Shown here piece by piece: positions 24,480-41,182 of a stretch of DNA of 64,000 bases (positions are counted from its first letter, which is position 1; the number at the start of each line of letters is the position of its first letter). A program made the position numbers and the translations under genes. Origin of the DNA: an uncultured Bacilli bacterium (GTDB lineage: Bacteria; Bacillota_I; Bacilli_A; RF39; UBA660). The notes beneath the pieces are model-generated. The model was not told where the DNA came from, did not search any database, and saw only the letters and a program-made list of their open reading frames with translations. Where the stretch lies: positions 4,283-68,282 of the forward strand of contig CALVRI010000003.1 in the NCBI GenBank assembly GCA_944358525.1, given 5' to 3'.

Positions 24480-24508
24480 TTGCTTCTTAGTTAAGTTTAT
24501 GGTAAAAT
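24480..24508 (+). promoter_or_regulatory. candidate promoter of the cargo operon
   Basis: TTGCTT (24480-24485), 17 nt, and the extended -10 TGgTAAAAT (24500-24508), 35 nt upstream of ugd. Confidence 0.45.
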
Positions 24509-24542: not shown

Positions 24543-25859
24543 ATGAAGATAACGGTTTCTGGAGTAGGCTATGTTGGTTTGGTAACCGGCATAGCCTTGT
24601 CTCATATTGGGCATAAAGTAACCTGTATTGATGTTGATAAAGAAAAAATTGCAAAGTTGAAACGTGGAATTTCTCCTATTTACGAACAGAATTTAGAAAA
24701 ATTGATGAATGAAAATAAGGATAGATTAGAGTATACACTTGATTATAAAAGTGCTTATAAAAATCCAGATGTAATTATTATATGTGTTGGTACTCCTGAA
24801 AAGGAAGATGGATCTGCCAATTTGGATTATATTTATTCAGTATGTGAACAAATTGCTGAATCATTAGAAAAAGATTGTGTTGTTGTTTTAAAATCAACGG
24901 TGCCGATTGGAACTAATGATGAAATCGAAAAAAAGCTAAATAATGCAGTAAAAGATGGTATTAAGGTATATGTTGTCAGTAATCCTGAATTTTTATCACA
25001 AGGAACAGCTGTACATGATACTTTATATGCTTCAAGAATTGTTGTAGGCACGGAAAATGAATATGCGGCTAATGTGATGAGAAAATTATATGAGCCATTA
25101 ACTAAAGAACCTTATAACGTTCCTTATTTACATACTTTAAGAAAAAGTGCTGAAATGATTAAATATGCCTCTAATGATTTCTTGGCTTTAAAAATATCTT
25201 ATATTAATGAGATAGCTAATTTATGCAAGAAATTAGGAGCTAATATTGAGGAAGTTTCAAAAGGTATGGGATTGGATCCAAGAATTGGTAAAAGTTTCTT
25301 AAAGGCGGGAATAGGCTATGGAGGGTCATGTTTTCCAAAAGATACAAAAGCATTACATTGGTTAAGTGTCATAAATGGCATTGAATTGAAAACGATTAAA
25401 GCCTGTATTGCAGTAAACGAATCGCAAAAATTAATTTTATTTAATCAATTGAAAAATGACTTGGGTGATTTACATGGTAAAACAATAGCTATATTGGGAT
25501 TAACATTTAAACCGAATACAGATGATTTACGTGACGCTCCTTCTATTATTAATATAAAAGAATTATTACGTTCTGGAGCTAATGTTAAAGCATATAATCC
25601 TGTCGGAATTAATAATTTTAAAAATAATCTTAAAAAGTTTGGTATAAATAGTGATAGTAATCTTTTATTTTATGAATCTATAGACGATACTATCAGAGAC
25701 GCTGACGCTGTAATGATAATGACAGAATGGCCAAGTATAGTAAATTATGATATAGCAAAATATAAAAAACTTATGACAGAGCCGAGAATATATGATGGAA
25801 GAAATTGTTATAAGTTAGAAGATATGGAAGATATGTTATATTTTTCGATAGGTAGGTAA
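24543..25859 (+). CDS. ugd: UDP-glucose 6-dehydrogenase
   Basis: N-terminal VSGVGYVGLVTG Rossmann motif, catalytic GYGGSCFPKD, and GLTFKPNTDDLRDAP. Confidence 0.9.
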   Translation: MKITVSGVGYVGLVTGIALSHIGHKVTCIDVDKEKIAKLKRGISPIYEQNLEKLMNENKDRLEYTLDYKSAYKNPDVIIICVGTPEKEDGSANLDYIYSVCEQIAESLEKDCVVVLKSTVPIGTNDEIEKKLNNAVKDGIKVYVVSNPEFLSQGTAVHDTLYASRIVVGTENEYAANVMRKLYEPLTKEPYNVPYLHTLRKSAEMIKYASNDFLALKISYINEIANLCKKLGANIEEVSKGMGLDPRIGKSFLKAGIGYGGSCFPKDTKALHWLSVINGIELKTIKACIAVNESQKLILFNQLKNDLGDLHGKTIAILGLTFKPNTDDLRDAPSIINIKELLRSGANVKAYNPVGINNFKNNLKKFGINSDSNLLFYESIDDTIRDADAVMIMTEWPSIVNYDIAKYKKLMTEPRIYDGRNCYKLEDMEDMLYFSIGR

Positions 25860-25861
25860 TT

Positions 25862-27007
25862 ATGAAAAAGTTTAAATATAATTTAAAGAAAATATTGAAA
25901 TTTTTGCCAATATCAATAAGGTCATTTGTTTTAGAACATTGGTCTATATTTTATCTTGATGATTATAAAAGGGTAAAATCAAAAATAGATTGTTATGTAC
26001 CTTTATATACCAAATTCGATTCTTTAAAAAGTACAAAAGATTTATTGAAAAAAATCGCTTTTTCTGGTAGAAAAGGAATTATTACTTGTGAACATTTTTG
26101 TAATGAACAAATAAGACAAATTACAGATAATAACTTAAAAAATAGTAATTTAATTGTTGTTTGCGTTGTAAAAAATGAACTAGGCAGAATTGTAAGATGG
26201 TTAGACTATTATAGAAAAATGGGTGTAAAAGCATTTGCTATTTTTGATGATAATTCTGATGATGGTACAAGAGAGTATTTACTTAAACAACCTGATGTAG
26301 AAGTGTTTGTAGGAACTCATGACTATACAACTATTGATAAAATTGTTTGGGTAAATATGATTATTGCAATATATGGTTATAATAAGTGGTATTTAATTGT
26401 TGATTCTGATGAACTTTTTACTTATAAAAATATGGAAAATATTAAAATAGATAAATATGTAAAAACATTAAAAAGTAAGCATGTGTTTATAGAATCAACT
26501 ATAATGTTAGATATGTATTCTGATAGCAATATTTTTAGTATTTCTAGTAATGATAATTACGAAAAGAAATGTTGTTATTTTGATAATTCTGGATATTATA
26601 TAAAGCAAACTTCTGAAGCAAATTATATTGTAGGTGGAGTTAGAAAAAGAATTTTTAATAATACAAATTTTCAATGCTTACCAGTATTATCAAAAAAGGC
26701 TTTAATGTTTATGACTAAAAATACATTTGTTTATACTGCTCATACAATTTATCCTTTTAAATATAATTATTTTTGTAATGTTACCTCAGTATTAAGACAT
26801 TATAAATTTTTAAAGGAAGATTATAAAAATTATGCTGAAAGAGTAGCTAAAAATAATTTTTATAATGCTAGTTCAGAATATAAAGCATATTTGGATTTAT
26901 ATAATAAAAACACTTTAATTAATTTAAAAACTTCAAAATCACTTAAATGGAAAGACTCAAATAGTATAAATAAAATAGAAGTTAGTGATAAAACAATTAC
27001 AAAGTAG
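25862..27007 (+). CDS. glycosyltransferase family 2-like protein (Glyco_tranf_2_4 type)
   Basis: VVCVVKNELGRIVRWLDYYRKMGVKAFAIFDDNSDDGT and VDSDELF (DxD). Confidence 0.6.
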   Translation: MKKFKYNLKKILKFLPISIRSFVLEHWSIFYLDDYKRVKSKIDCYVPLYTKFDSLKSTKDLLKKIAFSGRKGIITCEHFCNEQIRQITDNNLKNSNLIVVCVVKNELGRIVRWLDYYRKMGVKAFAIFDDNSDDGTREYLLKQPDVEVFVGTHDYTTIDKIVWVNMIIAIYGYNKWYLIVDSDELFTYKNMENIKIDKYVKTLKSKHVFIESTIMLDMYSDSNIFSISSNDNYEKKCCYFDNSGYYIKQTSEANYIVGGVRKRIFNNTNFQCLPVLSKKALMFMTKNTFVYTAHTIYPFKYNYFCNVTSVLRHYKFLKEDYKNYAERVAKNNFYNASSEYKAYLDLYNKNTLINLKTSKSLKWKDSNSINKIEVSDKTITK

Positions 27008-27041
27008 GTTATTGCTTTAATTTGTAAAGGGGGGATATATT

Positions 27042-27824
27042 TTGAAACAGAATTATATTATTGGAAATAATATTTTATCAATAATATGTGATAATGTTGA
27101 AATATATCAAAGACTCAACAAGTGGCTTATTACTTTTAAAACAATTGATATTGAACAAAAAAGTAATTTGCTTGTTATTAATAAATCTGTAATACGATTA
27201 ATTTTAAATAATAAGGAAATTTTAAATATAAAATTAGAATCAACTGACTTGTATCCAATTGTCATGAATGCAATATCAAATTTAATTAATAATGACAATA
27301 ATATTGTATTGCATTCATCAGTTATTAGTAAAAATGGATATGGAATATTGATCTTGGGGACATTTGGATCAGGTAAGACTAATTTATCTTTGGCAGCTGA
27401 AAAACGTGGTTATAAAATAAATTCTGCAGATTTTAGCTGGTTAACAGTTCAAAGTCAAAAACTATATTTAGAAAAAGGTTCTTGTTATTTAAAATACGGG
27501 TCAAAAGAAAGATTTTTATCAGATAAAGATTGTAATTCAAAGATTAACATTAAAATGGTTATATATTTAATCGGTGCTTGTGATGGTGATAAATTTAAAG
27601 CAGATAAGGTTGAGAATTACAAACATATTATTAAACGTATTTTTCCATTTGCTAATTGGCATAGTAGTATGCCATTAATAGGAGAGAATATAGAATTACC
27701 AATAAACAATATGTATATTAAAACTTTTTTAATGAATTTTTCAAAATTAGATATAGATTTTTTGCTTGTTAGAGGTGACTCAAACAAGCTAATTTCTATG
27801 ATTGATGATAAAATAATTATATAG
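27042..27824 (+). CDS. HPr-kinase C-terminal-domain-like P-loop protein (paralogue 1)
   Basis: LHSSVISKNGYGILILGTFGSGKTNLSLAAEKRGYKINSADFSWL parallels the HprK core lHg..v...G.GvLi.G.SG.GKSe.AL.L..rGh.LvaDD. TTG start after AAGGGGGG. Confidence 0.55.
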   Translation: MKQNYIIGNNILSIICDNVEIYQRLNKWLITFKTIDIEQKSNLLVINKSVIRLILNNKEILNIKLESTDLYPIVMNAISNLINNDNNIVLHSSVISKNGYGILILGTFGSGKTNLSLAAEKRGYKINSADFSWLTVQSQKLYLEKGSCYLKYGSKERFLSDKDCNSKINIKMVIYLIGACDGDKFKADKVENYKHIIKRIFPFANWHSSMPLIGENIELPINNMYIKTFLMNFSKLDIDFLLVRGDSNKLISMIDDKIII

Positions 27825-27830
27825 AGGTAG

Positions 27831-28559
27831 TTGATTTGTTTGAATATTAATACTAAGATCTTAAAAGATGGAACACCAATTTGTGAGATTATTCCAAAGC
27901 ATATGAAGGAAGTTCTTATATTATGTCATGGCTTAGGTGGAAACAAAAACTTTTTTCATCCATTGGAAGAAAAGTTAGCAGACATTAATATTGGTATTGT
28001 TTCCTTTGATTTTCCATATCATGGTGAAAGGAAAAATAAGTATACTACTTATACTGTAAAAAATTGTTTAAAAACAATTGATAATGTATATAAACATGTT
28101 ATTAAGCAATATGATGGAGTTAAAGTTAGTTTTATGGGCAAAAGTTTAGGATCATTATATTTATATGTATATTTACAACAAAAGTCCCCATTAGCCTATA
28201 AAGTTATTTTTCAAAGTTTACTATTAAATAATAAAGAAAAAATGGCTCATGATTTTTTTAATAATCCTAAAAATACAGATAAATATTTTTGTGTAGGTTA
28301 CGGAAGAAAATTACCCAAAAAGTTATTAGATGATTTGGATGAATTAGAAAGAAATCTATCAGATATAACTTGTACTGATAAGAAAAATATTTTGTTTATT
28401 CATGGAACAGCAGATACTATTGCCTCTTTAGAGAATGTAAGACAATTGTGTGATAAATTTCATTTTAATTTATATGAAATTGTAGGTGCCGATCATAATT
28501 TTAAAGTAAATAATTCAAAGAAAAAATTAAATGATAAAATTGTTGAATTCTTTAAATAA
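27831..28559 (+). CDS. alpha/beta hydrolase
   Basis: LCHGLGGNK, the nucleophile elbow GKSLGS, then HGTADT and GADH. Confidence 0.65.
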   Translation: MICLNINTKILKDGTPICEIIPKHMKEVLILCHGLGGNKNFFHPLEEKLADINIGIVSFDFPYHGERKNKYTTYTVKNCLKTIDNVYKHVIKQYDGVKVSFMGKSLGSLYLYVYLQQKSPLAYKVIFQSLLLNNKEKMAHDFFNNPKNTDKYFCVGYGRKLPKKLLDDLDELERNLSDITCTDKKNILFIHGTADTIASLENVRQLCDKFHFNLYEIVGADHNFKVNNSKKKLNDKIVEFFK

Positions 28560-28597
28560 TATAAGAATTATAGAAATGAAAGGTGCGTGATTATGTA

Positions 28598-29593
28598 ATG
28601 AAAAAAATAGTAATTTTTGGGACAGGCAAAGCTGCTAAATTGCATTATTTATCATACAAAAAATTTTTAAATCCTAATTTATTATTCTTTGTCGATCCTT
28701 TTCATAAGACCAATTATAGTGATATAAAAGTCTATAGTACTTTAAAAGAATTTTTGAATAATACTAATTATTCGCCTGATGATGTAATAGTTGATATTTG
28801 TACTCCCTGTTCTGTATTTCATTCAATAATTGAAGAATGTAAATTAAGTGGTTTGATAAATATTATTGTAGAAAAGCCATTTGTTACTAGTCGAAACGAG
28901 CTTGAAAACAAGTTTTCTGGCTTAAATATATGTATGGTACAAAATTATTTATATTCTGATATAACAAAAGAAATAAAAGAAATAATGACTGAAAATAATT
29001 TGTCGATAAAAACATTAACTATAGATTTTTCAAAAAATCGTATAATAGATAGTTTTAATAATAGAGGAATGGTTAAAAATTATACAACTAGTGTTTTTGA
29101 GGTTGAATTTCCACATGAACTTTATATTGCTGATTATTTTTTAAATTTAAATAAAGATTTTAGAATTATTTCATTAAATGTTAAAGATATGATTAAAGAC
29201 GGTAAAATATTAAAGAATCATGGTTATGGACAAATTGTTTGGAAAAAAGATGAAAAAAATGTTGTTTTAAAAAGTAATTTAATGTATTTTACAACAATTA
29301 AAAGAATAAATATTGAATTTGATGATGGAAAGTCTTTAGAAGCAAATTATTTAATATATGACAAAGATTTAAATGTGTTACATAAAGGAAATATATGTTT
29401 TGAGAATAAAAATCGTATAATATATCACAAAGAATTTTCAAGAGATGATAATATGCTTGAATGTTTAAAAGATTATTATTATTGTTTTTCTTTAAATAAA
29501 TATAATGATAAATATAAATCAAGAATTGTATCATTTTCTAATTTAATGAAAACAATTGAAGCAAAGGAAAAAGATTATGAAACGTGTAAATAA
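28598..29593 (+). CDS. Gfo/Idh/MocA-family NAD(P)-dependent oxidoreductase
   Basis: KIVIFGTGKAAKLH Rossmann motif and IIVEKP (EKP motif). The track start is a GTG at 28583. Confidence 0.6.
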   Translation: MKKIVIFGTGKAAKLHYLSYKKFLNPNLLFFVDPFHKTNYSDIKVYSTLKEFLNNTNYSPDDVIVDICTPCSVFHSIIEECKLSGLINIIVEKPFVTSRNELENKFSGLNICMVQNYLYSDITKEIKEIMTENNLSIKTLTIDFSKNRIIDSFNNRGMVKNYTTSVFEVEFPHELYIADYFLNLNKDFRIISLNVKDMIKDGKILKNHGYGQIVWKKDEKNVVLKSNLMYFTTIKRINIEFDDGKSLEANYLIYDKDLNVLHKGNICFENKNRIIYHKEFSRDDNMLECLKDYYYCFSLNKYNDKYKSRIVSFSNLMKTIEAKEKDYETCK

Positions 29594-30137
29594 GTATAAA
29601 AAGAAATTTGTAAATTTTCGATTAAAAATGACTAAAAGTGGTAAAAAAAGAGCAAAAATTTTAAAAGAAGAACAGGTTTTTTATCAGTTTGGTGAAAATA
29701 ATGAATGGCATCCATCAAAGGTTCCATCAAATTCTGAATTAATTTCTATTCACAATAATGTGGTTGTAGCAGCACATGTATATTTTTGTACACACGATTT
29801 AATCTCAACTGTATTTAATAATCAAGTAAATAGTAAGAAATACAAAATATTTTTAGGAACAATTGAAGTGTTTGATAATGTTTTTATCGGAGCAAATTCA
29901 ACAATTATGTATAATACTAAAATTGGACCAAATGCCATAGTTGCTGCTGGCTCTGTAGTTACAAAAGATGTTCCGGAAGGAAGTATTGTGGGAGGAAATC
30001 CTGCTAAAATTATAGGACAAGTTAATGATTTGAAACAAAAACGATTGATTTATCAAGATACTATGAAAGTATTTAATTCAAGCATGAATGATAGTCAACT
30101 AATTGATTATTTATGGAGGAATGGAAATGAAAAATAA
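29577..30137 (+). CDS. left-handed beta-helix (hexapeptide) O-acetyltransferase
   Basis: VFIGANSTIMYNTKIGPNAIVAAGSVVTKDVPEGSIVGGNPAKIIG. The start is uncertain (29556, 29577 or 29628). Confidence 0.7.
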   Translation: MKRVNKYKKKFVNFRLKMTKSGKKRAKILKEEQVFYQFGENNEWHPSKVPSNSELISIHNNVVVAAHVYFCTHDLISTVFNNQVNSKKYKIFLGTIEVFDNVFIGANSTIMYNTKIGPNAIVAAGSVVTKDVPEGSIVGGNPAKIIGQVNDLKQKRLIYQDTMKVFNSSMNDSQLIDYLWRNGNEK

Positions 30138-31752
30138 ATTTATCAATGTGTTAAAAAAACAGTTAGATGATAATGTTTCTCATCAATTTGATATAGCTTT
30201 TGTTGAATTAAGTAAAACCGATGTACATAAATCAATTACTTATGGTGAGTTTTATAAAAAAGTGTGTAAATTGGGAGAACAATTAATTCAAAATGGTTAT
30301 CAAAATATGAAAGTAATTCTATATATGTCTAATAATATAGATTCTATAATTAATTTGTTTTCTTGTTTTTATGCAAATATAATGCCTATTATAAAATCAT
30401 ACAATACAGGCAATATTGAGATTGATAAATATGTTGATGAAATAAATGTTTTATTAAATAATTTTAATAAGATAAATTATGTTTTTTTAGATAATATTTT
30501 ATATGAAAAAGTGAAAAATAAATTAAATATAGATAATGTTATTAATTTGAATAATATATGTCCAAATGATTTAATTTTTGAATGTAATGTTAAAAATGAT
30601 AATTTTGATTTTGTACTTTCAACATCTGGTTCAACAGCTATTCCAAAATGTGTAAAAATTAATATAGATAAAATGTTTTCAAACATTTTATTTGATAATA
30701 ATTTATGGAAAGTAAATAAAAATTCGAAATTTTTAAATTGGTTACCTATATCTCATATATATGGGCTAACTTCAATTGTTTTTATACCTTTGTATTTTGG
30801 AGCTACGTCATATCTAATGAAACCTCACGATTATTATGATAATTGTTATCTTTGGATTGAGTCTATTTCCAAATATAGAATAACTCATACTTCAATTATT
30901 AATTTTGCTTTAAATCAATTGTCGCTTATAGATAATATAGATGATAATATAGATTTATCTAGTTTACAAAATCTTTCAATTGGTGGTGAAAGTGTCAAGT
31001 TAAATTCAGTTAGGACTTTTTATAATAAATATAAAAAATATAATTTAAAATTTAATGTATTTTCGCCAAGCTATGGTATGTCAGAGAATAGTGGATTAGT
31101 ATCTGAATATAAAAGTGATTTTGGTCAGCCTTTATCCATTAAAGTTGATAGGAAACTTTTGATTGAAGGAAAGATGAAAGAAGATAAAGATGGAATTGAA
31201 ATCGTAAATTTAGGTCAAATTGATAAAAGCAATGTGTTAATATCTTCAAAAAATGGTGATTATTATAATAATGACGATGAAATAGGCGAAGTTGTTTTAA
31301 ATGATAAATCATTATGCTCTGGATATTTAAATAATAATCAAGAATTTCCTAAATACTTTCATACTGGTGATTTAGGTTTTATTCATAATGACTGTTTATA
31401 TTTATGTGGAAGAATTAAAGATGTTATTGTAATTAGAGGTAAAAATTTTGCTTCTTCATTAATTTGCGATACTATTTCAAATACCTTGTCAAAAAGCAAT
31501 GTTGGTATAAATACATTTATTACTTTACCAGATAATGATGATTCTATATATTTCGTACAAGAAGTATTAAAGCCATTAAACACACAAGCATTAAAGCTAG
31601 AAATTCAAGAAGTAATAAAATCTTATACTAAATATGATATTCCATTAGAAAATATTATTCTTATAAAAAGTAGTGATTTACCAAAATTATCAAGTGGTAA
31701 GTTAGATAAAATTACATTAACAAACTTAATAATGGGTGGTGTGTTAAAATGA
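30127..31752 (+). CDS. adenylate-forming enzyme (fatty acyl-AMP ligase-like)
   Basis: LSTSGSTAIPKCV (A3 core), YGMSEN, HTGDLGF, GRIKDVIVIRGKN and SSGKLDK. The ATG at 30127 lies 6 nt after GGAGGA. Confidence 0.8.
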   Translation: MKNKFINVLKKQLDDNVSHQFDIAFVELSKTDVHKSITYGEFYKKVCKLGEQLIQNGYQNMKVILYMSNNIDSIINLFSCFYANIMPIIKSYNTGNIEIDKYVDEINVLLNNFNKINYVFLDNILYEKVKNKLNIDNVINLNNICPNDLIFECNVKNDNFDFVLSTSGSTAIPKCVKINIDKMFSNILFDNNLWKVNKNSKFLNWLPISHIYGLTSIVFIPLYFGATSYLMKPHDYYDNCYLWIESISKYRITHTSIINFALNQLSLIDNIDDNIDLSSLQNLSIGGESVKLNSVRTFYNKYKKYNLKFNVFSPSYGMSENSGLVSEYKSDFGQPLSIKVDRKLLIEGKMKEDKDGIEIVNLGQIDKSNVLISSKNGDYYNNDDEIGEVVLNDKSLCSGYLNNNQEFPKYFHTGDLGFIHNDCLYLCGRIKDVIVIRGKNFASSLICDTISNTLSKSNVGINTFITLPDNDDSIYFVQEVLKPLNTQALKLEIQEVIKSYTKYDIPLENIILIKSSDLPKLSSGKLDKITLTNLIMGGVLK

Positions 31753-33628: not shown

Positions 33629-33637
33629 TAATTTGAT

Positions 33638-34396
33638 ATGGTAATATTTAGTGCAATCAATGATGAGATTGGTAATACTTTAACAGAACAGTTAAAATGT
33701 TTAAGAAAAAATAAAGTAAAATTCATTGAATTTAGAAAAATTGATAATAAGTTTCTTTTTGAATTAAGCAAAATAGAGTTAAATACAGTATTACAATTAT
33801 TGAAGCAAAATAAAATTTTGGTATCTATGATTGATACACCAATAGGTAAGCCAAAATATCAATTTTCCGAAGAAGATATATATTTGATTTTTGATAAATA
33901 TATAAAAATTGCAAAAATGTTTAATACTAATAAGTTACGTATTTTTAGTGATATAACAGATAATATTTTGATACATTTATGTAAAGTTGCTCAAAAAAAT
34001 AGTATAGATTTATTTATGGAAAATGAGAAAGGTACTCAATTTACATCTTTTGATTATTTTGTTAATTTACAAAATAAAATAAAAATGAAGAATTTATTTG
34101 TTTTGTATGATGTTGAAAATTATTTTTCATGTAATGGTAAAGAACAATATTTAAAAGATTTTAACAAATATTCTAATATCATTAAATATGTACATTTAAG
34201 AGATTATGACAATAATTATACTATTATTACAAATGGACAATTAGATATTGTTGGTGTTTTAAATCAAATGTTAAATAAACCGTTTGATATTTGTGTTTCG
34301 ATTGAATCCCATTTACCAATGATATCTTTTAAAGATAAAAAAGATTTATTTTCTAAAAATATGAAAGAAATACGTAAAAAAATACATAGGGAGTGA
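33638..34396 (+). CDS. xylose-isomerase-like TIM-barrel protein (sugar phosphate isomerase/epimerase family)
   Basis: LRIFS, FMENE and YVHLRD follow the spacing typical of the AP_endonuc_2 fold. Confidence 0.45.
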   Translation: MVIFSAINDEIGNTLTEQLKCLRKNKVKFIEFRKIDNKFLFELSKIELNTVLQLLKQNKILVSMIDTPIGKPKYQFSEEDIYLIFDKYIKIAKMFNTNKLRIFSDITDNILIHLCKVAQKNSIDLFMENEKGTQFTSFDYFVNLQNKIKMKNLFVLYDVENYFSCNGKEQYLKDFNKYSNIIKYVHLRDYDNNYTIITNGQLDIVGVLNQMLNKPFDICVSIESHLPMISFKDKKDLFSKNMKEIRKKIHRE

Positions 34397-34400
34397 TAGC

Positions 34401-35387
34401 ATGGAAAATAGTAAGATTTTTCATTATACAAATTTATTGAGAGTTGAATTGAGCAATGAGATTGATACATCTGAAATTGAGAATTATTTCCCTCAAACAA
34501 TTTCTGAAAAGCAATCTGATTATAATTCTGACTATACTATTAATTATAATTTATCTCAATATAATTATTTAAAAAATATTTTACCATCTTTTGATTTACA
34601 AGGCAAAAAATTTCCATATAGATCTGCTCCAGCGATTAGTAAAAATATTGACGGATGGACATTAAGCTATTTTTTCCCAAATAGATATTCTGAAGATTAT
34701 TTTGTAGCCATAAATCAAGGCAAGATATGTATTTTTGCTAATAAGTATGATTCCAATATAGTAATTCGTATTTTAAATGAATTAATTGTAAGAAAATTAT
34801 TAGAAAAAAATTATTTTCCAATTCATGCTTCTGCAATCGTAAATTTAGATGATGGTAAAACAGATTTGTTTTTTGGAGGTAAAGGTTCTGGTAAATCAAC
34901 TATGTTTTTTGAAAAAACTGTAAATGGAAATTACTTGCCTTTAGCAAATGATGTTTGTTTTGTTGGTGTTGAAAATGGGCAAGCTATGGTTTATTCTATG
35001 ACGTATGATATTACTTTTCATAAATCATTGCTTGTAAATAATAATAATGATTTTAATATAAAAGATGATAAAATTAGATGTAATCCTCTTCAATTTTGTC
35101 AATTTATTGATAAATCTTGGATATATGTTGCACCATTAAAATCTTTAAATTATACAGCTTTAAATTTATCTGACGATTTTGAAATTCAACAAATATCAGC
35201 TGAAAATATGCATGAATTATTATTAAAATATGGAAAAGATAGGGACTTTACGTTTGATGATGTATTAAATATTAATAATTTATATCCAAATTATGACTAC
35301 GACAATTTAATTAAGCATGTATCTTTGTTAAACAGTATTAAAGGCAATGTTATAGATAGAAATAAAACAAAAAGACAAATTTATTAG
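34401..35387 (+). CDS. HPr-kinase C-terminal-domain-like P-loop protein (paralogue 2)
   Basis: FPIHASAIVNLDDGKTDLFFGGKGSGKSTMFFE...LANDVCFV has the same architecture as the 27042 product. Confidence 0.5.
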   Translation: MENSKIFHYTNLLRVELSNEIDTSEIENYFPQTISEKQSDYNSDYTINYNLSQYNYLKNILPSFDLQGKKFPYRSAPAISKNIDGWTLSYFFPNRYSEDYFVAINQGKICIFANKYDSNIVIRILNELIVRKLLEKNYFPIHASAIVNLDDGKTDLFFGGKGSGKSTMFFEKTVNGNYLPLANDVCFVGVENGQAMVYSMTYDITFHKSLLVNNNNDFNIKDDKIRCNPLQFCQFIDKSWIYVAPLKSLNYTALNLSDDFEIQQISAENMHELLLKYGKDRDFTFDDVLNINNLYPNYDYDNLIKHVSLLNSIKGNVIDRNKTKRQIY

Positions 35388-35397
35388 GAGGTATAAT

Positions 35398-36852
35398 ATG
35401 ATGTATTATTTATATGATGATATACAAACTATTATTCAAGAATTAGAAAAGCATAATTTAACTGTTGTTTTTAAGGAAGATGAGATTACAGTTTATGGAA
35501 TGGATGATTTTTTAGTAATAGAAATTAAAAAGATTGATAACTCTATAAGAACATTTTCAATTCCTTTAAAAAGTGTTTGTTATGAATTATTAATTAATAA
35601 GTCGATTAAAGATAATTTATATAAATTAGTATCTAAAATAGTTAGCGAGAAATGTTTGGAATATAGCAGCAATGAAATTTTAACGATATTAAATGATATG
35701 AAAATAACAAAGGATTACTCTGAAAAAAATAAAGGTATATTAAAAAATGTTGCTATAATTTGGAGAGATCATTTCTTGGAAGAAAATATTGGTTTATTAT
35801 CTGGTTTTGTTACGCTCGGAGTTAAACCTAATGATATACTTGCTTTAGATAAAGGAGATAGTACTGCACATCGATTTGAAATTACTGCAACATTTAAAAA
35901 AATGGGATTTAATGTGGATGTTTTAGATAATTCTTCACTTGATGATGATAAATTAATGGCAGTTGGAACAAATATGGTGAGTGATTTTATTAATAAAAGA
36001 AAAGACAAGAAAATAATAATTTTAGATGATGGTGCAATTATTACTAAAATTCTAAATAAAGTTCATTTTGATAATATTATTTCTGTTATTGAATTAACGG
36101 AAATGGGGTTGAGGCGAATTAATAAGTTGAATAAAATTGATTATCCTGTTTTAAATGTTGCCAAAACTAAATTAAAAAGAAATTTAGTATATCCCGAAAT
36201 ATCAAATTCTTTATTTATTAGAATTACAGAGTTACTTGGTGGAGAAAAATTGGTCGGAAGATCTGCAATATTATGTGGGTATGGAGACATGGGTGAAATA
36301 CTTGCCGAAAGATTAAGAAGTTTTGGAGTTCGTGTTTCGGTCGTAGATACAGATACTATGAGGTTAATTGTTGCTGGTGAAAGAGGATTTAATACTTATA
36401 GGAATATTGTTGACGCAGTTAAAAATGAACATCCATTTATAATTATTGGTGCTTCTGGTTATTATAGTATTACAAAAGATATTTTTCCTTATCTTTCTGA
36501 AAAAACATATATTACAGCTGGAGCAACTGCGGATTTGAAAGTATTTGATAATTACAAGAATAGTTCTGTTTATGTTCCAAAATTAGGTACAATATATTCA
36601 ATTGACAATAAAAATATTATTGTACTTGGTAATGGTCGTTCTGTTAATTTATATTATTCTGAAGCAATTCCAAATAAATCCAATGATATATTTAAGGCTG
36701 GTACATTAGTTACTGCATGTAATTCAGTAATTCATGCTAACGAATTAATATCAGGTGTCTCATTAAATGTTGTGGACGATTGGATAAGAAATTCAGGAAT
36801 ATTAGAAGAATATTACGATTTATATATTAATCGTGTAAAAGAAAATAAATAG
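35398..36852 (+). CDS. divergent S-adenosylhomocysteine-hydrolase-fold NAD-binding protein
   Basis: Collinear with AdoHcyase blocks: DKGDSTAH (vs CN..STQD), IILDDGA (vs DDGGD), ELTEMGLRR (vs EETTTGV.RL), LNVAKTKLK (vs NVNDSVTK), GRSAILCGYGDMGEILAERLRSFGVRVSVVDTD (vs GK.a.V.GYGDVGKG.A..lr..GA.V.VtEiDP). Several catalytic-block residues are substituted. Confidence 0.5.
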   Translation: MMYYLYDDIQTIIQELEKHNLTVVFKEDEITVYGMDDFLVIEIKKIDNSIRTFSIPLKSVCYELLINKSIKDNLYKLVSKIVSEKCLEYSSNEILTILNDMKITKDYSEKNKGILKNVAIIWRDHFLEENIGLLSGFVTLGVKPNDILALDKGDSTAHRFEITATFKKMGFNVDVLDNSSLDDDKLMAVGTNMVSDFINKRKDKKIIILDDGAIITKILNKVHFDNIISVIELTEMGLRRINKLNKIDYPVLNVAKTKLKRNLVYPEISNSLFIRITELLGGEKLVGRSAILCGYGDMGEILAERLRSFGVRVSVVDTDTMRLIVAGERGFNTYRNIVDAVKNEHPFIIIGASGYYSITKDIFPYLSEKTYITAGATADLKVFDNYKNSSVYVPKLGTIYSIDNKNIIVLGNGRSVNLYYSEAIPNKSNDIFKAGTLVTACNSVIHANELISGVSLNVVDDWIRNSGILEEYYDLYINRVKENK

Positions 36853-36862
36853 GTGAAATATT

Positions 36863-37630
36863 ATGATGGTGAAAACGAAATATAGTATTATTAGTAGGGG
36901 AACAGAACAATATTCTAAACATGGATATATGGGAATAAGCGAGCCTGTTTTGAGTAAACAATATATATTAGATGTTGATCATGGTGTTTTAGAAAGTGAG
37001 TTAAATGATCACGTTTTGGAATTTAAAGCTAATACTTATTCATTATGTAATATTGCTGTTTCAAGATTTGAGCTAATTTCAAGACTTGTATTTGAACGAT
37101 TTAAGGTAAAGGATAATATTTTAATATTAGGATTTGGTAATATAGGATTTACTTGCTTATTATCTTTGTTAAAATCTGGTTATAAAAACATTAGTGTTTT
37201 TGTAAGAAATATCAAAGTAGATATAAAACCTTTAGAAGATAAATTTAACATTAAAGTGAATTTTGTGAAAAAGATTGACGATTCTTATGTAACTTATATT
37301 GACACGACTGGTTCATCCAATATTATTCAAGAAATGATTGAACAAAGTTCTTCACTCAAAGATATAATTATATTGAGTACTCCAAGAGAGTCGAAGTATC
37401 TTATTGATCCATTAATTATTAATAGAAAAAATTTAACGATAGTAGGTGGCCATGAACTAAATGGTATTGATAAAATATGGAGGAATAATCTTTTTAATAA
37501 GATTTTGGAAGAAAATTTAAATATAGAAGATATTTTAATCTCATATATTTCAGTAAGTGAATATAGTGAAAGTAATGTAAATCAATTAAGAAGCCATAAG
37601 AAAAAATTAATTGATATTATTAAATATTAA
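36863..37630 (+). CDS. short MDR/alcohol-dehydrogenase-like Rossmann protein
   Basis: ILILGFGNIGFTCLLSLLKSGYKNISVFVRN nucleotide-binding motif. It lacks the usual zinc-ligand N-terminal domain. Confidence 0.4.
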   Translation: MMVKTKYSIISRGTEQYSKHGYMGISEPVLSKQYILDVDHGVLESELNDHVLEFKANTYSLCNIAVSRFELISRLVFERFKVKDNILILGFGNIGFTCLLSLLKSGYKNISVFVRNIKVDIKPLEDKFNIKVNFVKKIDDSYVTYIDTTGSSNIIQEMIEQSSSLKDIIILSTPRESKYLIDPLIINRKNLTIVGGHELNGIDKIWRNNLFNKILEENLNIEDILISYISVSEYSESNVNQLRSHKKKLIDIIKY

Positions 37631-37645
37631 AAGGGAGATAATAAA

Positions 37646-38371
37646 ATGGTAAAAAATTTTTTAGTAAGTGATTATGATGGTACATATAAAATGAAGCCGA
37701 CAGTTTTAGATGATTTAAAAAAGAATAATTTTGCTGTGCAAAGGTTTATTGATAAAGGAAATATTTTTATGATGGCAACTGGGAGAGTTTTTGAATCAAT
37801 TCATAAAGAATTTATTGAATTTGATTTAAAGGCAAACTATATTAGTTGTGCTGAAGCAAATGTTTTATTTAATAATAATTTTGAGTTACTATATTATAAT
37901 ACCATTTCAAAACAAGATATATTAAAAATAAAGGATTATTATAAACTGCTTGATGAAATGATAGGAAAGGATCCTTATGGTAATGTTAGTAGTGAAAATA
38001 TTGTTGAATATAATATTAGGTATAAAGATGAAAAATCTAAACGTATATTTGTTGAAAATTTAAGGCATAATAAGTTGTTTGCATTTTACCATGATCCATT
38101 AGATCCGTTAAACGCACATTTATTTGACAAAAGAAATGATAAAGTTAAAGCAATTCAATTTGTAGCTACATTAGAAAATATTCCGAAAAATAAAATATAT
38201 ACTATTGGCGACGGATATAATGATTTGAGTATGATAGAAGAGTTTAATGGCTTTGCTGTAAAAAATGCTAAATATGCAGCTAAATTTGAATCATTAGGGG
38301 TTTATAATACTGTGAGTGATTTAGTGGATGATATAGAAAAAGAAAATGTGCCAAAAAGGCAACGAAAATGA
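37646..38371 (+). CDS. HAD-superfamily (Cof-type) phosphatase
   Basis: Motif I LVSDYDGT and motif III/IV GDGYNDLSM. Confidence 0.7.
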   Translation: MVKNFLVSDYDGTYKMKPTVLDDLKKNNFAVQRFIDKGNIFMMATGRVFESIHKEFIEFDLKANYISCAEANVLFNNNFELLYYNTISKQDILKIKDYYKLLDEMIGKDPYGNVSSENIVEYNIRYKDEKSKRIFVENLRHNKLFAFYHDPLDPLNAHLFDKRNDKVKAIQFVATLENIPKNKIYTIGDGYNDLSMIEEFNGFAVKNAKYAAKFESLGVYNTVSDLVDDIEKENVPKRQRK

Positions 38372-38422
38372 GGATAGGTATTAAATTTATGTTATAATAA
38401 AAATAATGGGGGGTATGACTTT

Positions 38423-39115
38423 ATGGAAGATATGCATATACACGTTAGAAACGCAGTTGATGATTATTCAAAATTAAAAATGTATATTGAACGGTGCATT
38501 GAGCTGGGATTAGATAGGGTGTTATTTGTGGAACATGGCCCAAGATTATCTGAACATCACTCTGCCAGGTTGGATACACCAGAAAAAATAACTCAATTTA
38601 AATCAAATATTGAACGAGCTAGAAAAGAATATCCAAATTTAAAAATATTTTATGGGATAGAATTAGATTTTTCTTATGATAAAGCATTTAATGATAGTAA
38701 TAATAAATTAACTAATATTGGATTTGATTATATAATATCTGCAATACATCATTATAGATTTACTAATGGTAGAGATTATTTAAAAGCAATTATACAAATG
38801 ATTGATACTTGTAAATTTGATATTATTGGGCATATGCTTTTAAAATATGATTGGAAAGATTGTTTAGATTTAATTGATATTGTATTGAATAAAGCCAAAG
38901 AAAAAGGAATTATTATTGAAATTAATACTAGTGATAGATCTAGATGGAAAGATGATGTGTTGGAGTATATGCTAGAGAAAATGAATGAGTATGGAATTAC
39001 TTATACAATAGCTTCTGACGCTCATTCTGTCGAAGAGGTAGGTCACATGATAAAAGAGACAACTGAAAAAGTAGAGCATTTTAATTTTAAAAAATCTTGT
39101 TTAATCAAAAAATAA
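38423..39115 (+). CDS. PHP-domain (histidinol-phosphatase-like) phosphoesterase
   Basis: N-terminal DMHIHV and C-terminal IASDAHS. Confidence 0.6.
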   Translation: MEDMHIHVRNAVDDYSKLKMYIERCIELGLDRVLFVEHGPRLSEHHSARLDTPEKITQFKSNIERARKEYPNLKIFYGIELDFSYDKAFNDSNNKLTNIGFDYIISAIHHYRFTNGRDYLKAIIQMIDTCKFDIIGHMLLKYDWKDCLDLIDIVLNKAKEKGIIIEINTSDRSRWKDDVLEYMLEKMNEYGITYTIASDAHSVEEVGHMIKETTEKVEHFNFKKSCLIKK

Positions 39116-39145
39116 TTGTTTTATTTATGTAAGGAGGAAAAAGAT

Positions 39146-40180
39146 ATGGTTGAAAAGACAGAATTCACTGAAGATACAATAAAATCAGAAGTTGAGAAAC
39201 ATTACGGAATGAAAGTTAATGATATTAAGGTAGTAAATGGTGGTAGTGCTAATATATACAAATTAACAGCCGATAATGGTGAAAAATATATTTTGAAAGA
39301 ATTTCAATCAAAATTTAGCGGCAAAACTATTCTTAAAGAAATTAATATTATTAATTTCTTAAGAAATAAAGGATTATCAGTACCAGAATATGTAACATGT
39401 TTAGATGGAAAACAATATTTTGAATACAATGATAAAACAGTAATTATTCAAAAGTTTATTGAAGGACATACCCAAGGTAATTATAGCGGAAGTGTAGAGC
39501 AAATGTTAGAATCTGCAAAATATTTAGGTATTATTGTTAATGCATTAGAGGATTATCCTTATGAGGATATGTTTGGTTGTAATATTGAGAAATATACATC
39601 AGATGAAATCATTGATAAGAGTATTGCAAAACACGAAAATTTAATACCGTTAGCTGAAAAAGACGAAGTACATGGTTCTGAGATAGTAAAAGACTTAAAA
39701 GACAAAATAGAAATGTTAAAAGAAGTCAAACGAGATGGTACTTTTAAAAAAGCTACTAATGTAACAATAAAGAAAACACATGGTGATTATAATGTATTAC
39801 AGTTTATTTATGATGACAAGGGTAAAATAAAAGCTATTATTGACTTTGTTAATGCTGGTGAAATGCCAATAGTATGGGAGATTGCTAGATCATATAATTA
39901 TATAGACAAAGATTGTAAAAACGGTGAATTTAACATTGATCATTTAGTTATGTATGTAAAAGAATATTTAAAATACTCAAAACTTAACAAAGATGATTTA
40001 AAATATTTACCTTATGTATATTTAGTGCAAGTATTATCAAGTACATACGGTTATAAAGAATATTTAAAAAATGGTAATCTTGATTTGCTTCGTTTTGGAA
40101 AAGAAAGAACGAATATATGCCGTTATTTAATGAAAAATGCTAAAACAATATCAGAAAGATTATTGGAAATCGACTTGTGA
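39146..40180 (+). CDS. APH/choline-kinase-family phosphotransferase
   Basis: Brenner motif THGDYNVLQF and IIDFVNAG. The ATG at 39146 follows AAGGAGG. Confidence 0.7.
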   Translation: MVEKTEFTEDTIKSEVEKHYGMKVNDIKVVNGGSANIYKLTADNGEKYILKEFQSKFSGKTILKEINIINFLRNKGLSVPEYVTCLDGKQYFEYNDKTVIIQKFIEGHTQGNYSGSVEQMLESAKYLGIIVNALEDYPYEDMFGCNIEKYTSDEIIDKSIAKHENLIPLAEKDEVHGSEIVKDLKDKIEMLKEVKRDGTFKKATNVTIKKTHGDYNVLQFIYDDKGKIKAIIDFVNAGEMPIVWEIARSYNYIDKDCKNGEFNIDHLVMYVKEYLKYSKLNKDDLKYLPYVYLVQVLSSTYGYKEYLKNGNLDLLRFGKERTNICRYLMKNAKTISERLLEIDL

Positions 40181-40183
40181 TTT

Positions 40184-41182
40184 ATGAATGCTAATAATGA
40201 AATCTTAATTTCTATTATAGTCACGGTTTATAATAATGAACAATATATAAAAAAATGTTTAGAAACAATTATTCCTCAACTCAATTCAAAAATTGAGTTG
40301 ATTATTGTTGATGATGGTTCTTCTGATTCCACTATAAATATTTGTAATGAAATAATAAAAGGTACAAGGAATATTACAATTGTTTTAAATGAACATAATG
40401 GATTATCTAATTCTCGTAATACTGGTATAAAAAAGTCTAGGGGTAAATATATTGTATTTGTCGATGGTGATGATTGGATTGATAAATCATATTTGAAATA
40501 TTTAGAAGAAATAATTAACAACAATCATTATGACGTTATTTTAATTAATACTACAAAATATTTTGAAGGTGAAGGTAAATATCTTGTTGAAAATTTTAAT
40601 TTTTCTGATTTAGATAAACATCCGTCCAAAGCTACAGAAAAAAAATTTATTTATAATAATATTTGTGGTAGAGCATGGAGATTAATAACACGACGACAAT
40701 TTTTACTTGATAACAAATTATTTTTTACTTATGGAATTTTGCATGAAGATGAAGAGTGGGTTACTAAAGTTTTAAATTTATATAATTCTATATTTTATAG
40801 CCCTAAAATAAGATATTTTTATCGAAAACATAATAATTCTATCATGTCCTCTAAATCTTTTAAAAATTATAATGATTTATTGTCTGTTGCTATAAAATTA
40901 TTTGATTTTAGTCATAACAAAATTAATTATAAAAATTATACTCAATATGTAGTTTTTAGATGTATTAGAAATAGTTATGGTAATTATAATAAGTTTAATA
41001 ATGCTGAAAAATCATTGTTAGATTCATGGTATATTAATCATAAAATAATTTTTTTATATGGAATTAAATATAAATTTTTATTAATGATATTATATTTAAT
41101 TTTTGGTTATAAAAACGGTATCCCATTATATAAGAATTATTTTAAAACATTAAATAAAAGACATGATAAATGGATGGTTTAA
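40184..41182 (+). CDS. glycosyltransferase family 2
   Basis: ISIIVTVYNNEQYIKKCLETI, VDDGSSDST and FVDGDDW. Confidence 0.8.
   Translation: MNANNEILISIIVTVYNNEQYIKKCLETIIPQLNSKIELIIVDDGSSDSTINICNEIIKGTRNITIVLNEHNGLSNSRNTGIKKSRGKYIVFVDGDDWIDKSYLKYLEEIINNNHYDVILINTTKYFEGEGKYLVENFNFSDLDKHPSKATEKKFIYNNICGRAWRLITRRQFLLDNKLFFTYGILHEDEEWVTKVLNLYNSIFYSPKIRYFYRKHNNSIMSSKSFKNYNDLLSVAIKLFDFSHNKINYKNYTQYVVFRCIRNSYGNYNKFNNAEKSLLDSWYINHKIIFLYGIKYKFLLMILYLIFGYKNGIPLYKNYFKTLNKRHDKWMV

Follow-up and report, generated by a model that had tools for sequence, protein, structure and literature searches.

Which pathway is encoded by 17 consecutive genes for soluble enzymes that travel on a mobile element of an uncultured Bacilli bacterium? 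The question arises from a stretch of 64,000 nucleotides of contig CALVRI010000003.1 (called the window in what follows), in which the plus strand of positions 24543-41182 carries 17 consecutive and tightly packed open reading frames (ORFs), g01 to g17. A first-pass annotation, made from the sequence alone, had described these genes as an orphan operon carried as cargo by an integrative and conjugative element (ICE). Our analysis partly supports this interpretation. At the heart of this ICE-borne operon is an uncharacterised cassette, conserved yet rare and found in two phyla, to which further genes have been added. The operon may encode one entirely cytoplasmic biosynthesis of a small molecule, a reading to which we give an even chance, the probability of any particular substrate being much lower.

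Domain calls were made with Pfam and NCBIfam profiles, with AlphaFold (AF2) models and Foldseek for g11 and g12, and by comparison of profiles with the Protein Data Bank (PDB) for several proteins. Gene starts are those of a gene caller on metagenome contigs encoding identical proteins (locus L001, offset by 25397 from the window). The genes are listed below, "core" designating membership of the conserved cassette and "accessory" the glycosylation genes added to it.

24543-25859, plus strand: g01, UDP-glucose 6-dehydrogenase (Ugd, TuaD-like), 438 aa; three UDPG_MGDP_dh domains (E 6e-63, 2e-36 and 2e-28), TIGR03026 at 446 bits, catalytic motif GGSCFPKD; core.
25862-27007, plus strand: g02, GT-A glycosyltransferase, 381 aa; Glyco_tranf_2_4 in Pfam (E 1e-19), DSD motif.
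27042-27824, plus strand: g03, P-loop protein 1 of the phosphoenolpyruvate carboxykinase (PEPCK)/HprK fold, 260 aa; weak matches to Hpr_kinase_C and TIGR04352, P-loop GTFGSGKT and HSS motif; core, present in 24 loci.
27831-28559 (called start 27840), plus strand: g04, alpha/beta hydrolase 1; Abhydrolase_11 and Hydrolase_4 (E 1e-12), nucleophile elbow GKSLG.
28583-29593 (called start 28598), plus strand: g05, Gfo/Idh/MocA-like (GFO) NAD oxidoreductase; GFO_IDH_MocA at E 4e-4, below the Pfam cut-off, motifs GTGKAA and EKP; core, present in 23 loci.
29556-30137 (called start 29577), plus strand: g06, hexapeptide-repeat acyl- or acetyltransferase; Hexapep (E 1e-9), sub-threshold NCBIfam matches to WbbJ, Vat and maltose O-acetyltransferase.
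30103-31752 (called start 30127), plus strand: g07, adenylating enzyme of the fatty acyl-AMP ligase (FAAL) type; AMP-binding (E 5e-32), FAAL subfamilies (E 1e-44 to 1e-47), best PDB matches to the FAAL loading domains 7r7f and 3kxw.
31749-32600, plus strand: g08, alpha/beta-fold protein, DUF1749-like (E 4e-7), in which no GxSxG motif was found.
32597-33628, plus strand: g09, GT-B glycosyltransferase of the GT4 type; Glycos_transf_1 (E 1e-6); accessory glycosylation module.
33638-34396, plus strand: g10, xylose-isomerase-like TIM barrel; AP_endonuc_2 (E 6e-10); core.
34401-35387, plus strand: g11, PEPCK/HprK-fold P-loop protein 2 (mini-PEPCK-like), 328 aa; PEPCK_ATP (E 7e-5), motifs HAS and P-loop GGKGSGKS; core.
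35398-36852, plus strand: g12, NAD enzyme with the fold of S-adenosylhomocysteine (SAH) hydrolase (AHCY) and an extra N-terminal beta domain; AdoHcyase_NAD (E 1e-11); signature gene of the cassette.
36863-37630, plus strand: g13, short Rossmann NAD(P) protein, 255 aa; no Pfam match above threshold, GFGNIG motif; core.
37646-38371, plus strand: g14, sugar-phosphate phosphatase of the haloacid dehalogenase (HAD) class IIB (Cof/S6PP type); Hydrolase_3 (E 1e-21), TIGR01484 above cut-off; accessory.
38423-39115, plus strand: g15, PHP-family (HisJ-like) metal phosphoesterase; PHP (E 5e-14), N-terminal HxH, matches to the HisJ (histidinol-phosphatase) family at E 1e-20 to 2e-21, below cut-offs; core.
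39116-40180 (called start 39146), plus strand: g16, small-molecule kinase of the aminoglycoside phosphotransferase (APH) fold; APH (E 2e-10), nearest PDB entries amicoumacin kinase and YtaA/CotI; core.
40184-41182, plus strand: g17, GT2 glycosyltransferase, last gene of the conserved 17-gene unit; Glycos_transf_2 (E 1e-33); accessory.

Essentially every domain call of the initial enzyme inventory was confirmed by Pfam and NCBIfam, the three to four glycosyltransferases counted at that stage being three. The compact, co-directional organisation with start-stop overlaps was also found again. With the called starts, junctions range from overlaps of 17 nt to gaps of 51 nt, and 4-nt start/stop overlaps link g07 to g08 (31749-31752) and g08 to g09 (32597-32600). 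Locus L011, from a metagenome-assembled genome (MAG) of an uncultured Bacilli, carries all 17 genes in the same order with 70-95% amino-acid identity. All 17 genes are under purifying selection, without decay in this related copy: the ratios of non-synonymous to synonymous substitutions (dN/dS) are 0.03-0.30, with dS values of 0.5-1.0. The most conserved gene is g16 (dN/dS 0.034). Furthermore, the expected catalytic motifs are intact (GGSCFPKD, DxD, P-loops, EKP, GxGxxG, HxH, the DxD of HAD enzymes and the HGD/DF of kinases). Tight packing, dN/dS values and intact motifs together suggest that the operon is intact and functional.

Its transcription was considered from the following signal:

24480-24508, plus strand: candidate sigma-A-type promoter, TTGCTT, 17 nt, extended -10 TGgTAAAAT, read from the sequence.

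This motif, put forward initially as the one promoter of the operon, is present and plausible, and a ribosome-binding site (AGGGG) precedes the ATG of g01 at 24543. The G+C content is about 25% across the whole window, and a consensus scan returned 201 promoter-like sites for 187 expected, a result without power in such AT-rich DNA. Likewise, three terminator-like sites were found for 2.4 expected, which is uninformative at this G+C content. Because of this lack of power, we can only infer that the 17 genes share a single promoter and are co-transcribed. No convincing internal terminator was seen within the operon, strong terminator-like hairpins being found only 3' of the next gene (41237-42739), at about 42780-42830 and at 42974-43010. 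No riboswitch or leader RNA was detected at the operon with Rfam, whose other matches, a pemK RNA motif and one tRNA, lie elsewhere.

The operon is located in the following element:

2187-45994, plus strand: ICE of about 43.8 kb; copies of the core GGTCAT at 2187-2192 and 45989-45994, junctions aligned to the empty site.

Upstream of the operon, the ICE encodes ParA, ParB, a thioester (TED)/SpaA adhesin, a sortase, a DUF3991-Toprim protein, a relaxase, a DUF3801 protein, a type IV coupling protein (T4CP), PrgI, VirB4 and a CHAP protein. Downstream, it encodes a small sigma factor and a large serine recombinase with DUF4368. The conjugation module includes a relaxase, a T4CP, a VirB4 ATPase and a cell-wall hydrolase, with MobA/VirD2-like Relaxase (E 6e-39), T4SS-DNA_transf (E 4e-57), TraG P-loop/AAA_10, PrgI and CHAP, and the serine recombinase (44351-45964) harbours Resolvase, Recombinase, Zn_ribbon and DUF4368 domains. 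Contigs encoding an identical ThiE fall into two classes. In five of them (L045, L046, L049, L050 and L051), thiE is directly followed by an intact Amidase_3/LysM gene; in L047, L048 and L052, as in the window, it is followed by the genes of ParA, ParB and the adhesin. The ICE interrupts the gene of this N-acetylmuramoyl-L-alanine amidase/LysM protein (ATG at 2157; parts 2157-2192 and 45989-47155) after codon 12. The empty-site alleles encode proteins of 398-453 aa that vary in their number of LysM repeats. Since empty sites are found and the junctions are exact, the carriage of the operon as ICE cargo, already proposed from the window sequence, is proven at the level of insertion polymorphism, with the conjugation module, the junctions and the five empty-site contigs in agreement. 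One of these empty-site contigs is 1.33 Mb long with 25% G+C, which indicates that the host genome is small and very AT-rich. The exact sigma factor of the ICE was always found beside the same cargo, and the search with it retrieved no element other than this one, at this one site; therefore, it provides no argument for a variable cargo slot.

Firmicute ICEs of the Tn5397/Tn1549 style integrate via a large serine recombinase. The element described here resembles them by its gene content (MobA/VirD2-like relaxase, T4CP, VirB4, PrgI, CHAP, small sigma factor and DUF4368 serine recombinase) and by its site-specific, intragenic insertion. It differs from them by its cargo, which is an 18-kb metabolic operon and not resistance genes.

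Other observations concern this ICE and its surroundings. The thioester-domain/SpaA-fold adhesin, encoded with its own sortase at 4418-6599 on the plus strand, is presumably a mating adhesin. A pemK RNA motif of Rfam (RF02913; 52.4 bits for a gathering threshold of 34.8) lies at 43769-43845 on the plus strand, between the sigma-factor gene and the serine recombinase gene, upstream of a 66-aa ORF. In L003, the sigma gene is followed by a PemK toxin gene, an HTH_17 gene and a gene truncated at the contig end, no serine recombinase being seen on that contig. The host chromosome upstream of the ICE (48-1983; 1872-6630 in L045) encodes a Peptidase_C39_2 protein, a small ORF, YcaO and a 293-aa protein, and then thiE; this region may be a YcaO-based peptide module or a thiamine-related one.

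Is this operon restricted to the ICE? The term orphan used initially does not hold, since near-identical copies occur in many metagenomes, along with the L011 variant, a chromosomal cassette and a reduced form in Streptomyces. The exact AHCY-like protein g12 was found in 58 blocks of the assembly collection, always within the same gene set, the closest records of the genome collection being MAGs of uncultured Bacilli or Clostridia from animal and human guts. In L011, the downstream DNA differs from that of the window and includes a convergent gene and a transposase of insertion-sequence type. The full 17-gene set of L011 thus lies in a different context, and the core cassette recurs on chromosomes.

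About ten of the 17 genes form a conserved cassette, chromosomal in many uncultured Firmicutes of low G+C content from gut and rumen (at least 27). Its core members are g01, g03, g05, g10, g11, g12, g13, g15 and g16. The search with the AHCY-like protein retrieved about 180 relatives, none with an informative functional name, and the neighbourhood is conserved in 24 genome loci and several metagenome loci (synteny across L008-L034). The usual gene order is APH, PHP (298 aa), HprK/PEPCK-like, TIM, AHCY-like, PHP fused to Rossmann (g13), HprK/PEPCK-like, APH and GFO-like. The cassette often extends to a short-chain dehydrogenase/reductase (SDR) epimerase or dehydratase, a Ugd-family dehydrogenase and a histidine phosphatase, and a NUDIX hydrolase is often encoded upstream. 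The G+C content of these loci is 22-33%, nearly all being at 24-26%. Several cassette members are fused to each other: TIM to AHCY-like in P0100 and P0112/L009, PHP to g13 in most chromosomal loci, and HprK-like to APH in L013.

Most cassette loci have no glycosyltransferase at all, which places the centre of the pathway in kinase, phosphatase and redox chemistry and makes glycosylation an add-on. The accessory modules are separable. Thus, L009 carries GT4, GT2 and HAD genes, and L018 carries GT4, GT2, FAAL and a DUF1749-like protein. Orthologues of g09 (38-45% identity) and of g17 are present in L009, L018 and L053, and the unit also ends at g17 in L011. Among the loci examined, the HAD gene (g14) occurs only where GT4 and GT2 genes are also found (L009, L011, L053, L055 and L056). 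The FAAL gene is accompanied by that of the alpha/beta-fold protein both in L018 and in the 17-gene version; g02, g04 and g06 are confined to the latter (window and L011) among the loci fetched. A variant order is found in L053 (4058-14287), L055 and L056: Ugd, radical SAM, PHP, GT4, GT2, GFO, HprK-like, g13, HAD, HprK-like and APH. In these three loci, the TIM and AHCY-like genes are absent and a radical-SAM gene (about 310 aa) is present, for which no SPASM match was reported. An AMP-binding enzyme and a hybrid histidine kinase/response regulator are encoded upstream of this L053-type variant. Transposase or serine-recombinase genes adjoin several cassette copies (L008, 362-1029 and 4341-4799; L019, 765; L024, 20355; L026, 17696; L011, 16650-16743), and the cassette may thus be mobile in other contexts too.

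The reduced form extends the distribution to a second phylum. A translated search of plasmids revealed an AHCY-like protein with 30-35% identity on large Streptomyces plasmids. On plasmid NZ_CP109456 of Streptomyces sp. NBC_01456 (37312-46106, locus L035), it is fused to a Gfo/Idh/MocA protein (907 aa); both halves are detected by Pfam, the GFO half being weak by profile. The neighbours include a protein annotated as AP endonuclease (TIM), an APH that aligns with the cassette kinase profile over 311 columns at 96.7% probability, and three proteins with a match to either the g11 profile or Hpr_kinase_C. By BLASTP between these neighbours and the window proteins, the AHCY-like protein was the sole match, the APH and HprK-like links requiring profile comparison. 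Profile comparison confirmed neither the TIM barrel nor a g13 homologue at this locus, and a 297-aa neighbour matched neither Pfam nor the g03 profile. An RmlD-like protein and an XRE regulator are encoded beside the locus. A scan of 1.84 billion representative proteins with the AHCY-like protein returned 56 clusters at 50% identity with E<=1e-30, several of them being Streptomyces-type fusions of about 900 aa. As judged from these searches, the cassette is rare and occurs in Firmicutes and, in a reduced form, in Streptomyces. Synteny, fusions and the existence of a version in another phylum argue that it is a functional unit. Literature searches found no report on the cassette, nothing relevant on the gene combination and no characterised homologous pathway.

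What chemistry could such a unit catalyse? Structure models were made of two enzymes. The AF2 model of g11 (predicted local distance difference test, pLDDT, 87.9) retrieved only ATP-dependent PEPCKs among its top 50 Foldseek matches (E 2e-9, about 360 aligned columns, both domains). The protein g03 is its paralogue (94.8% by hhalign). Both had been called HprK-like at first. The P-loop folds are confirmed, but the model of g11 is closer to PEPCK than to HPr kinase, and the Hpr_kinase_C score is 18 bits for a threshold of 33.3, the P-loop and an H-x-S motif being the only shared features. Mini-PEPCK-like would therefore be a better name for g03 and g11, and the proximity of g11 to PEPCK, a small-molecule kinase, would favour a small-molecule substrate.

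The second modelled enzyme is g12. Its profile matches AHCY structures of the PDB (E 4e-24), and its model (pLDDT 84.7) superposes on AHCY with template-modelling (TM) scores of 0.58-0.69, 19-20% identity, E 7e-24 and about 400 aligned columns. The family retains the DDG and E-x-T-x-x-G motifs for ribose or diol, the catalytic Lys and the GxGRxVNL segment. The position of Asp190 is occupied by Thr, and GHFD (His301) is replaced by GATAD. Hence, g12 has the fold of SAH hydrolase but is not one: the full set of equivalents of Lys186, Asp190, His301 and His353 is not there, and TIGR00936 gives 59 bits for a cut-off of 498. Its plausible activity is the NAD-dependent oxidation of a secondary alcohol. 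As for the other core enzymes, the g10 profile is nearest to Art22, MJ1311, AsbF, IolI, IolE and 3-keto-glucoside epimerase, which places it closest to isomerases and dehydratases of keto-sugars and inososes; a literature search found no paper describing Art22, its best structural relative. The g13 profile matches the NAD domain of AHCY and Rossmann folds of medium-chain (MDR) and short-chain dehydrogenases/reductases.

Overall, the cassette combines three to four ATP-dependent phosphotransferases, two to three metal phosphoesterases, four NAD(P) oxidoreductases and a keto-sugar TIM barrel. The fusions point to coupled steps: oxidation with isomerisation or dehydration (g12 and g10), dephosphorylation with reduction (g15 and g13), and two phosphorylations (HprK-like and APH). 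We propose that the core cassette would remodel a sugar, a uronate or a nucleoside-type precursor in repeated steps. The kinases g16, g11 and g03 would use ATP to phosphorylate hydroxyl or enol groups, and g12 and g05 would oxidise secondary alcohols to keto intermediates with NAD. Then g10, as physical partner of g12, would isomerise, epimerise or dehydrate the keto-sugar, and g15 with g13, which are fused elsewhere, would couple phosphate removal to reduction. Sugar or nucleoside remodelling proceeds in this manner: after activation of a hydroxyl as phosphate, the adjacent alcohol is oxidised, and elimination or isomerisation precedes a final reduction. The Ugd would provide a uronic acid as donor or as substrate. 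In the accessory module, the GT4 (g09) and GT2 (g17) enzymes would glycosylate a phosphorylated intermediate, the likely donor being UDP-glucuronic acid (UDP-GlcA) or UDP-glucose (UDP-Glc) made through g01. The HAD-IIB phosphatase g14 would next remove the phosphate, as in the pairing of sucrose-phosphate synthase with its phosphatase. Finally, the module specific to the 17-gene version (g02, g06, g04, and FAAL g07 with g08) would attach one more sugar, an acetyl group and, via an acyl-AMP, an acyl group. The pathway would thus yield a sugar- or nucleoside-like metabolite with phospho, glyco and acyl decorations, made and initially kept in the cytoplasm, and the ICE would pass the whole capacity between strains. 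The substrates, the order of the steps and the product are all predicted, as is co-transcription.

This proposal preserves the best part of the initial reading, namely a soluble pathway to a phosphorylated and acylated glycoside, cyclitol or nucleoside-like molecule; the decoration of an existing glycan or protein, also envisaged then, is retained only among the rival explanations weighed below. It is in line with the NUDIX hydrolase and the SDR epimerase or dehydratase of the chromosomal versions, and with the radical-SAM gene found where the TIM and AHCY-like genes are missing. Several observations weigh against it. No substrate-defining enzyme (sugar-phosphate cyclase, phosphoribosyltransferase, aminotransferase or nucleotidyltransferase) was found, and neither an exporter nor a self-resistance gene is present, so that a secreted bioactive product is unsupported. 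The FAAL g07 has no carrier-protein partner in the operon. At sub-threshold scores, g17 and Ugd resemble TuaG and TuaD of teichuronic acid synthesis, and the hydrophobic tail of g17 would be in keeping with a lipid-linked acceptor at the membrane. Lastly, ScmC (PF27840), which belongs to a peptide-modification cassette, is faintly matched by relatives of g11.

A more specific version can be formulated, although we consider it rather doubtful. The cassette would be an unrecognised pathway of Firmicutes and Actinomycetota whose products, sugar or nucleoside metabolites modified by phosphorylation and redox steps, would constitute a new class. Two enzyme types without a characterised counterpart would take part in it: a miniature kinase of the PEPCK fold, whose substrate would be a keto-acid or enol derived from a sugar (for instance a 4-keto-uronate made from the Ugd product and phosphorylated with decarboxylation), and an oxidoreductase of the SAH-hydrolase fold that works together with a lyase or isomerase of the TIM-barrel type. 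The ICE would spread a glycosylated and lipidated derivative among small-genome gut bacteria. Action of the PEPCK-fold enzyme on a beta-keto-uronate, with decarboxylation and formation of an enol phosphate, is chemically attractive and pure speculation.

The proposed chemistry has parallels in known systems. In puromycin biosynthesis, Pur10 (Gfo/Idh/MocA), Pur7 (NUDIX) and Pur3 (phosphatase) follow the same remodelling logic, as do the kinase Cns3, the phosphohydrolase Cns2 and the reductase Cns1 in that of cordycepin. Like the cassette, these nucleoside-antibiotic pathways are short and entirely soluble and combine NAD-dependent oxidation of a sugar hydroxyl with kinases, a NUDIX or metal phosphohydrolase, a phosphatase and a reductase; the PHP-Rossmann fusion mirrors their association of phosphohydrolase and reductase. 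The angustmycin pathway (AgmA-F) also uses an SAH-hydrolase-fold NAD enzyme on the sugar of a nucleoside, since AgmF is an SAH-hydrolase homologue that acts as an NAD-dependent dehydratase on a nucleoside sugar (PMC8599513); however, the Asp and His shown to be essential in AgmF are lost in g12. Furthermore, the cassette differs from nucleoside-antibiotic pathways by the lack of detectable orthology, by the absence of phosphoribosyltransferase, aminotransferase and exporter, by the absence of NUDIX from the ICE copy and by its hosts, which are uncultured gut Firmicutes.

The synthesis of glycosides from phosphorylated acceptors offers another likeness, with soluble GT4 or GT2 enzymes, a Cof/S6PP-type HAD-IIB phosphatase and no export genes. 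For instance, sucrose-phosphate, mannosylfructose-phosphate and glucosyl-3-phosphoglycerate synthases pair with an HAD-IIB phosphatase. However, the similarity does not go beyond the family level (E 1e-5 to 1e-8, below cut-offs), and the kinase and redox cassette is far larger here. The thu pathway of Bacillus thuringiensis, carried by a mobile element of a Firmicute, makes thuringiensin, a phosphorylated conjugate of nucleoside, sugar and sugar acid, with sugar-oxidising enzymes, a glycosyltransferase, an adenylating enzyme and a final kinase. By its description, it differs in having a carrier-protein-containing enzyme similar to non-ribosomal peptide synthetases and in lacking the cassette of AHCY-fold, TIM, PEPCK-fold and PHP proteins. 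Teichuronic acid (tua) and other wall-polysaccharide loci share with the operon a Ugd (TuaD-like), a GT2 (TuaG-like), a GT4 and an O-acetyltransferase. They differ from it by the TuaA priming transferase, the TuaB flippase, the TuaE polymerase and membrane proteins, all absent here, and most cassette copies carry no glycosyltransferase.

These absences were confirmed more generally. None of the 17 proteins is a polytopic membrane protein (0/17), hydrophobic windows being limited to the C-terminus of g17 and the Rossmann GxGxxG strand of g13. Pfam and NCBIfam found among them no priming transferase, flippase, polymerase, ABC transporter, nucleotidyltransferase or carrier protein, in accordance with the absences (priming, Wzx/Wzy, ABC export, nucleotidyltransferase and carrier protein) on which the first-pass annotation had insisted. 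No phosphoribosyltransferase domain was detected in the operon, and a scan of 27 loci revealed no conserved polytopic membrane protein up to about 10 kb from the cassette. Annotation by profiles, and by structure models for g11 and g12, matched no characterised polysaccharide, teichoic-acid or antibiotic pathway.

Membership of several known classes was also considered. As in polysaccharide loci, nucleotide-sugar supply and glycosyltransferases are present (Ugd, GT2_4, GT4 and GT2). A Wzx/Wzy- or ABC-dependent polysaccharide or teichoic-acid locus would in addition encode a priming phosphoglycosyl- or GlcNAc-1-P transferase and either a flippase and polymerase or an ABC exporter, none of which is found; the operon is thus unlike a capsule, teichoic-acid or O-antigen locus, as initially stated. 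No DHQ-synthase-like, inositol-phosphate-synthase or DegT/aminotransferase match indicates an aminoglycoside or cyclitol cluster with a cyclase of the DOIS/MIPS/EVS type. Cassettes for ribosomally synthesised and post-translationally modified peptides with an HprK-related/ScmC protein are not recognised either, the operon of the window encoding no precursor peptide, radical-SAM/SPASM maturase or PqqD-like partner. As for known anti-phage defence, g02, g03, g05, g10, g11, g12, g13, g15 and g16 match no PADLOC model. Synthesis of a spore-surface glycan in the mother cell would account for the missing exporters and for the CotI/YtaA-like APH; a host contig of 1.33 Mb at 25% G+C and the absence of visible sporulation genes in the window argue weakly against it.

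One further gene bears on the limits of the operon:

41237-42739, plus strand: possible 18th gene, type-I membrane protein; Ank_2 (E 3e-16), signal peptide, Cys/Ser-rich ectodomain, one transmembrane helix and cytoplasmic ankyrin repeats.

It starts 54 nt after g17 with no terminator in the gap. Its product has hydrophobic segments at 1-30 and 79-105, an ectodomain with CCSWHGG...SSSSS and a Lys/Glu-rich coiled segment. Its ankyrin-repeat region matches the PADLOC candidate PDC-M72A, the match being limited to the repeats. No ankyrin gene adjoins the cassette in the other loci fetched, including L011, and this gene may be an 18th operon member in this ICE only.

Could the 17 enzymes act on something other than a free small molecule? 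The most serious rival, which we nevertheless consider unlikely, is the decoration of the cell envelope. Ugd would provide UDP-GlcA, and the three glycosyltransferases, the acetyltransferase and the acyl module would modify a lipid-linked wall polysaccharide, a teichuronic-like polymer or a glycolipid at the cytoplasmic face of the membrane. Priming and export would be left to the host machinery, and the ICE would alter the surface of its recipient, for instance for phage or immune evasion. Mobile elements commonly carry surface-modifying cargo. Ugd reaches 470 bits on the TuaD model, g17 matches the TuaG, PglI and EpsE models and has a C-terminal hydrophobic segment, the acetyltransferase g06 resembles WbbJ and WcaF, and the PHP protein g15 weakly matches CpsB/CapC. 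However, all these matches are below curated cut-offs, the conserved cassette usually has no glycosyltransferase, and no membrane protein is linked to it in the 27 loci. Moreover, envelope decoration leaves several proteins without a function, namely the two PEPCK-fold proteins, the APH kinase, the AHCY-fold enzyme, the TIM barrel and the Rossmann-PHP fusion. The target could also be a protein or a ribosomal peptide, phosphorylated by the HprK/ScmC-like and APH/CotS-like kinases, decorated by the glycosyltransferases and acyl enzymes and dephosphorylated by PHP and HAD. Lasso-peptide precursors are phosphorylated by HprK homologues, and this rival can claim the weak Hpr_kinase_C and HprK_rel_A matches, the faint ScmC match in relatives of g11 and the resemblance of the APH profile to the spore-coat kinase YtaA/CotI. 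We regard it as improbable. Neither the window nor the related loci encode a precursor peptide, a PqqD-like chaperone, a SPASM enzyme, a protease or an exporter; PEPCK, a small-molecule kinase, is nearest to the g11 model; the redox, TIM and Ugd core points to sugar chemistry; and the size and G+C content of the host contig speak against a large spore-coat programme.

The direction of the pathway could also be reversed, the operon being a catabolic or detoxifying island that breaks down or inactivates an incoming glycoside, nucleoside or antibiotic. GFO and TIM would then perform an oxidative and eliminative deglycosylation, and the kinase, acetyltransferase and glycosyltransferase steps would be akin to resistance mechanisms. 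A Gfo/Idh/MocA enzyme with a xylose-isomerase-like TIM barrel is a known pair for cleavage of 3-keto-glycosides, and the TIM profile does match 3-keto-glucoside epimerase. Amicoumacin kinase is nearest to the APH, g06 has sub-threshold matches to Vat and CatB, and LysR regulators adjoin chromosomal cassettes. Yet no locus links a transporter to the cassette, the resistance-model scores are all far below cut-offs, and Ugd, the three glycosyltransferases and FAAL are anabolic. In addition, the constant order of the genes and their fusions speak for one pathway and not for a collection of resistance genes. We regard this explanation as slightly less probable than protein or peptide modification. 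Lastly, an anti-phage or inter-bacterial conflict system making a modified nucleotide effector would fit the carriage of the operon as ICE cargo, the nucleotide-handling folds (AHCY-like, and NUDIX in the chromosomal versions) and the PADLOC match of the downstream ankyrin protein. It is very improbable, as none of the nine operon enzymes tested matches a PADLOC model, no sensor/effector architecture is seen, and the ankyrin gene, whose match concerns repeats only, is unlinked to the cassette elsewhere.

Cytoplasmic biosynthesis of a small molecule thus stays our preferred reading of the 17-gene operon. It does not answer a long-standing question, and uncharacterised gene clusters are many. 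Nevertheless, the cassette is rare and yet present in two phyla, and no member characterised in the literature was found. The PEPCK-fold mini-kinase, the SAH-hydrolase-fold enzyme devoid of the hydrolase residues and the natural fusions that mark coupled steps can be viewed as targets for enzymology, and ICE-positive and empty-site strains constitute a natural pair for metabolomics. If the proposal is true, a complete pathway of 17 enzymes passes between uncultured gut bacteria with small genomes by means of a conjugative element.

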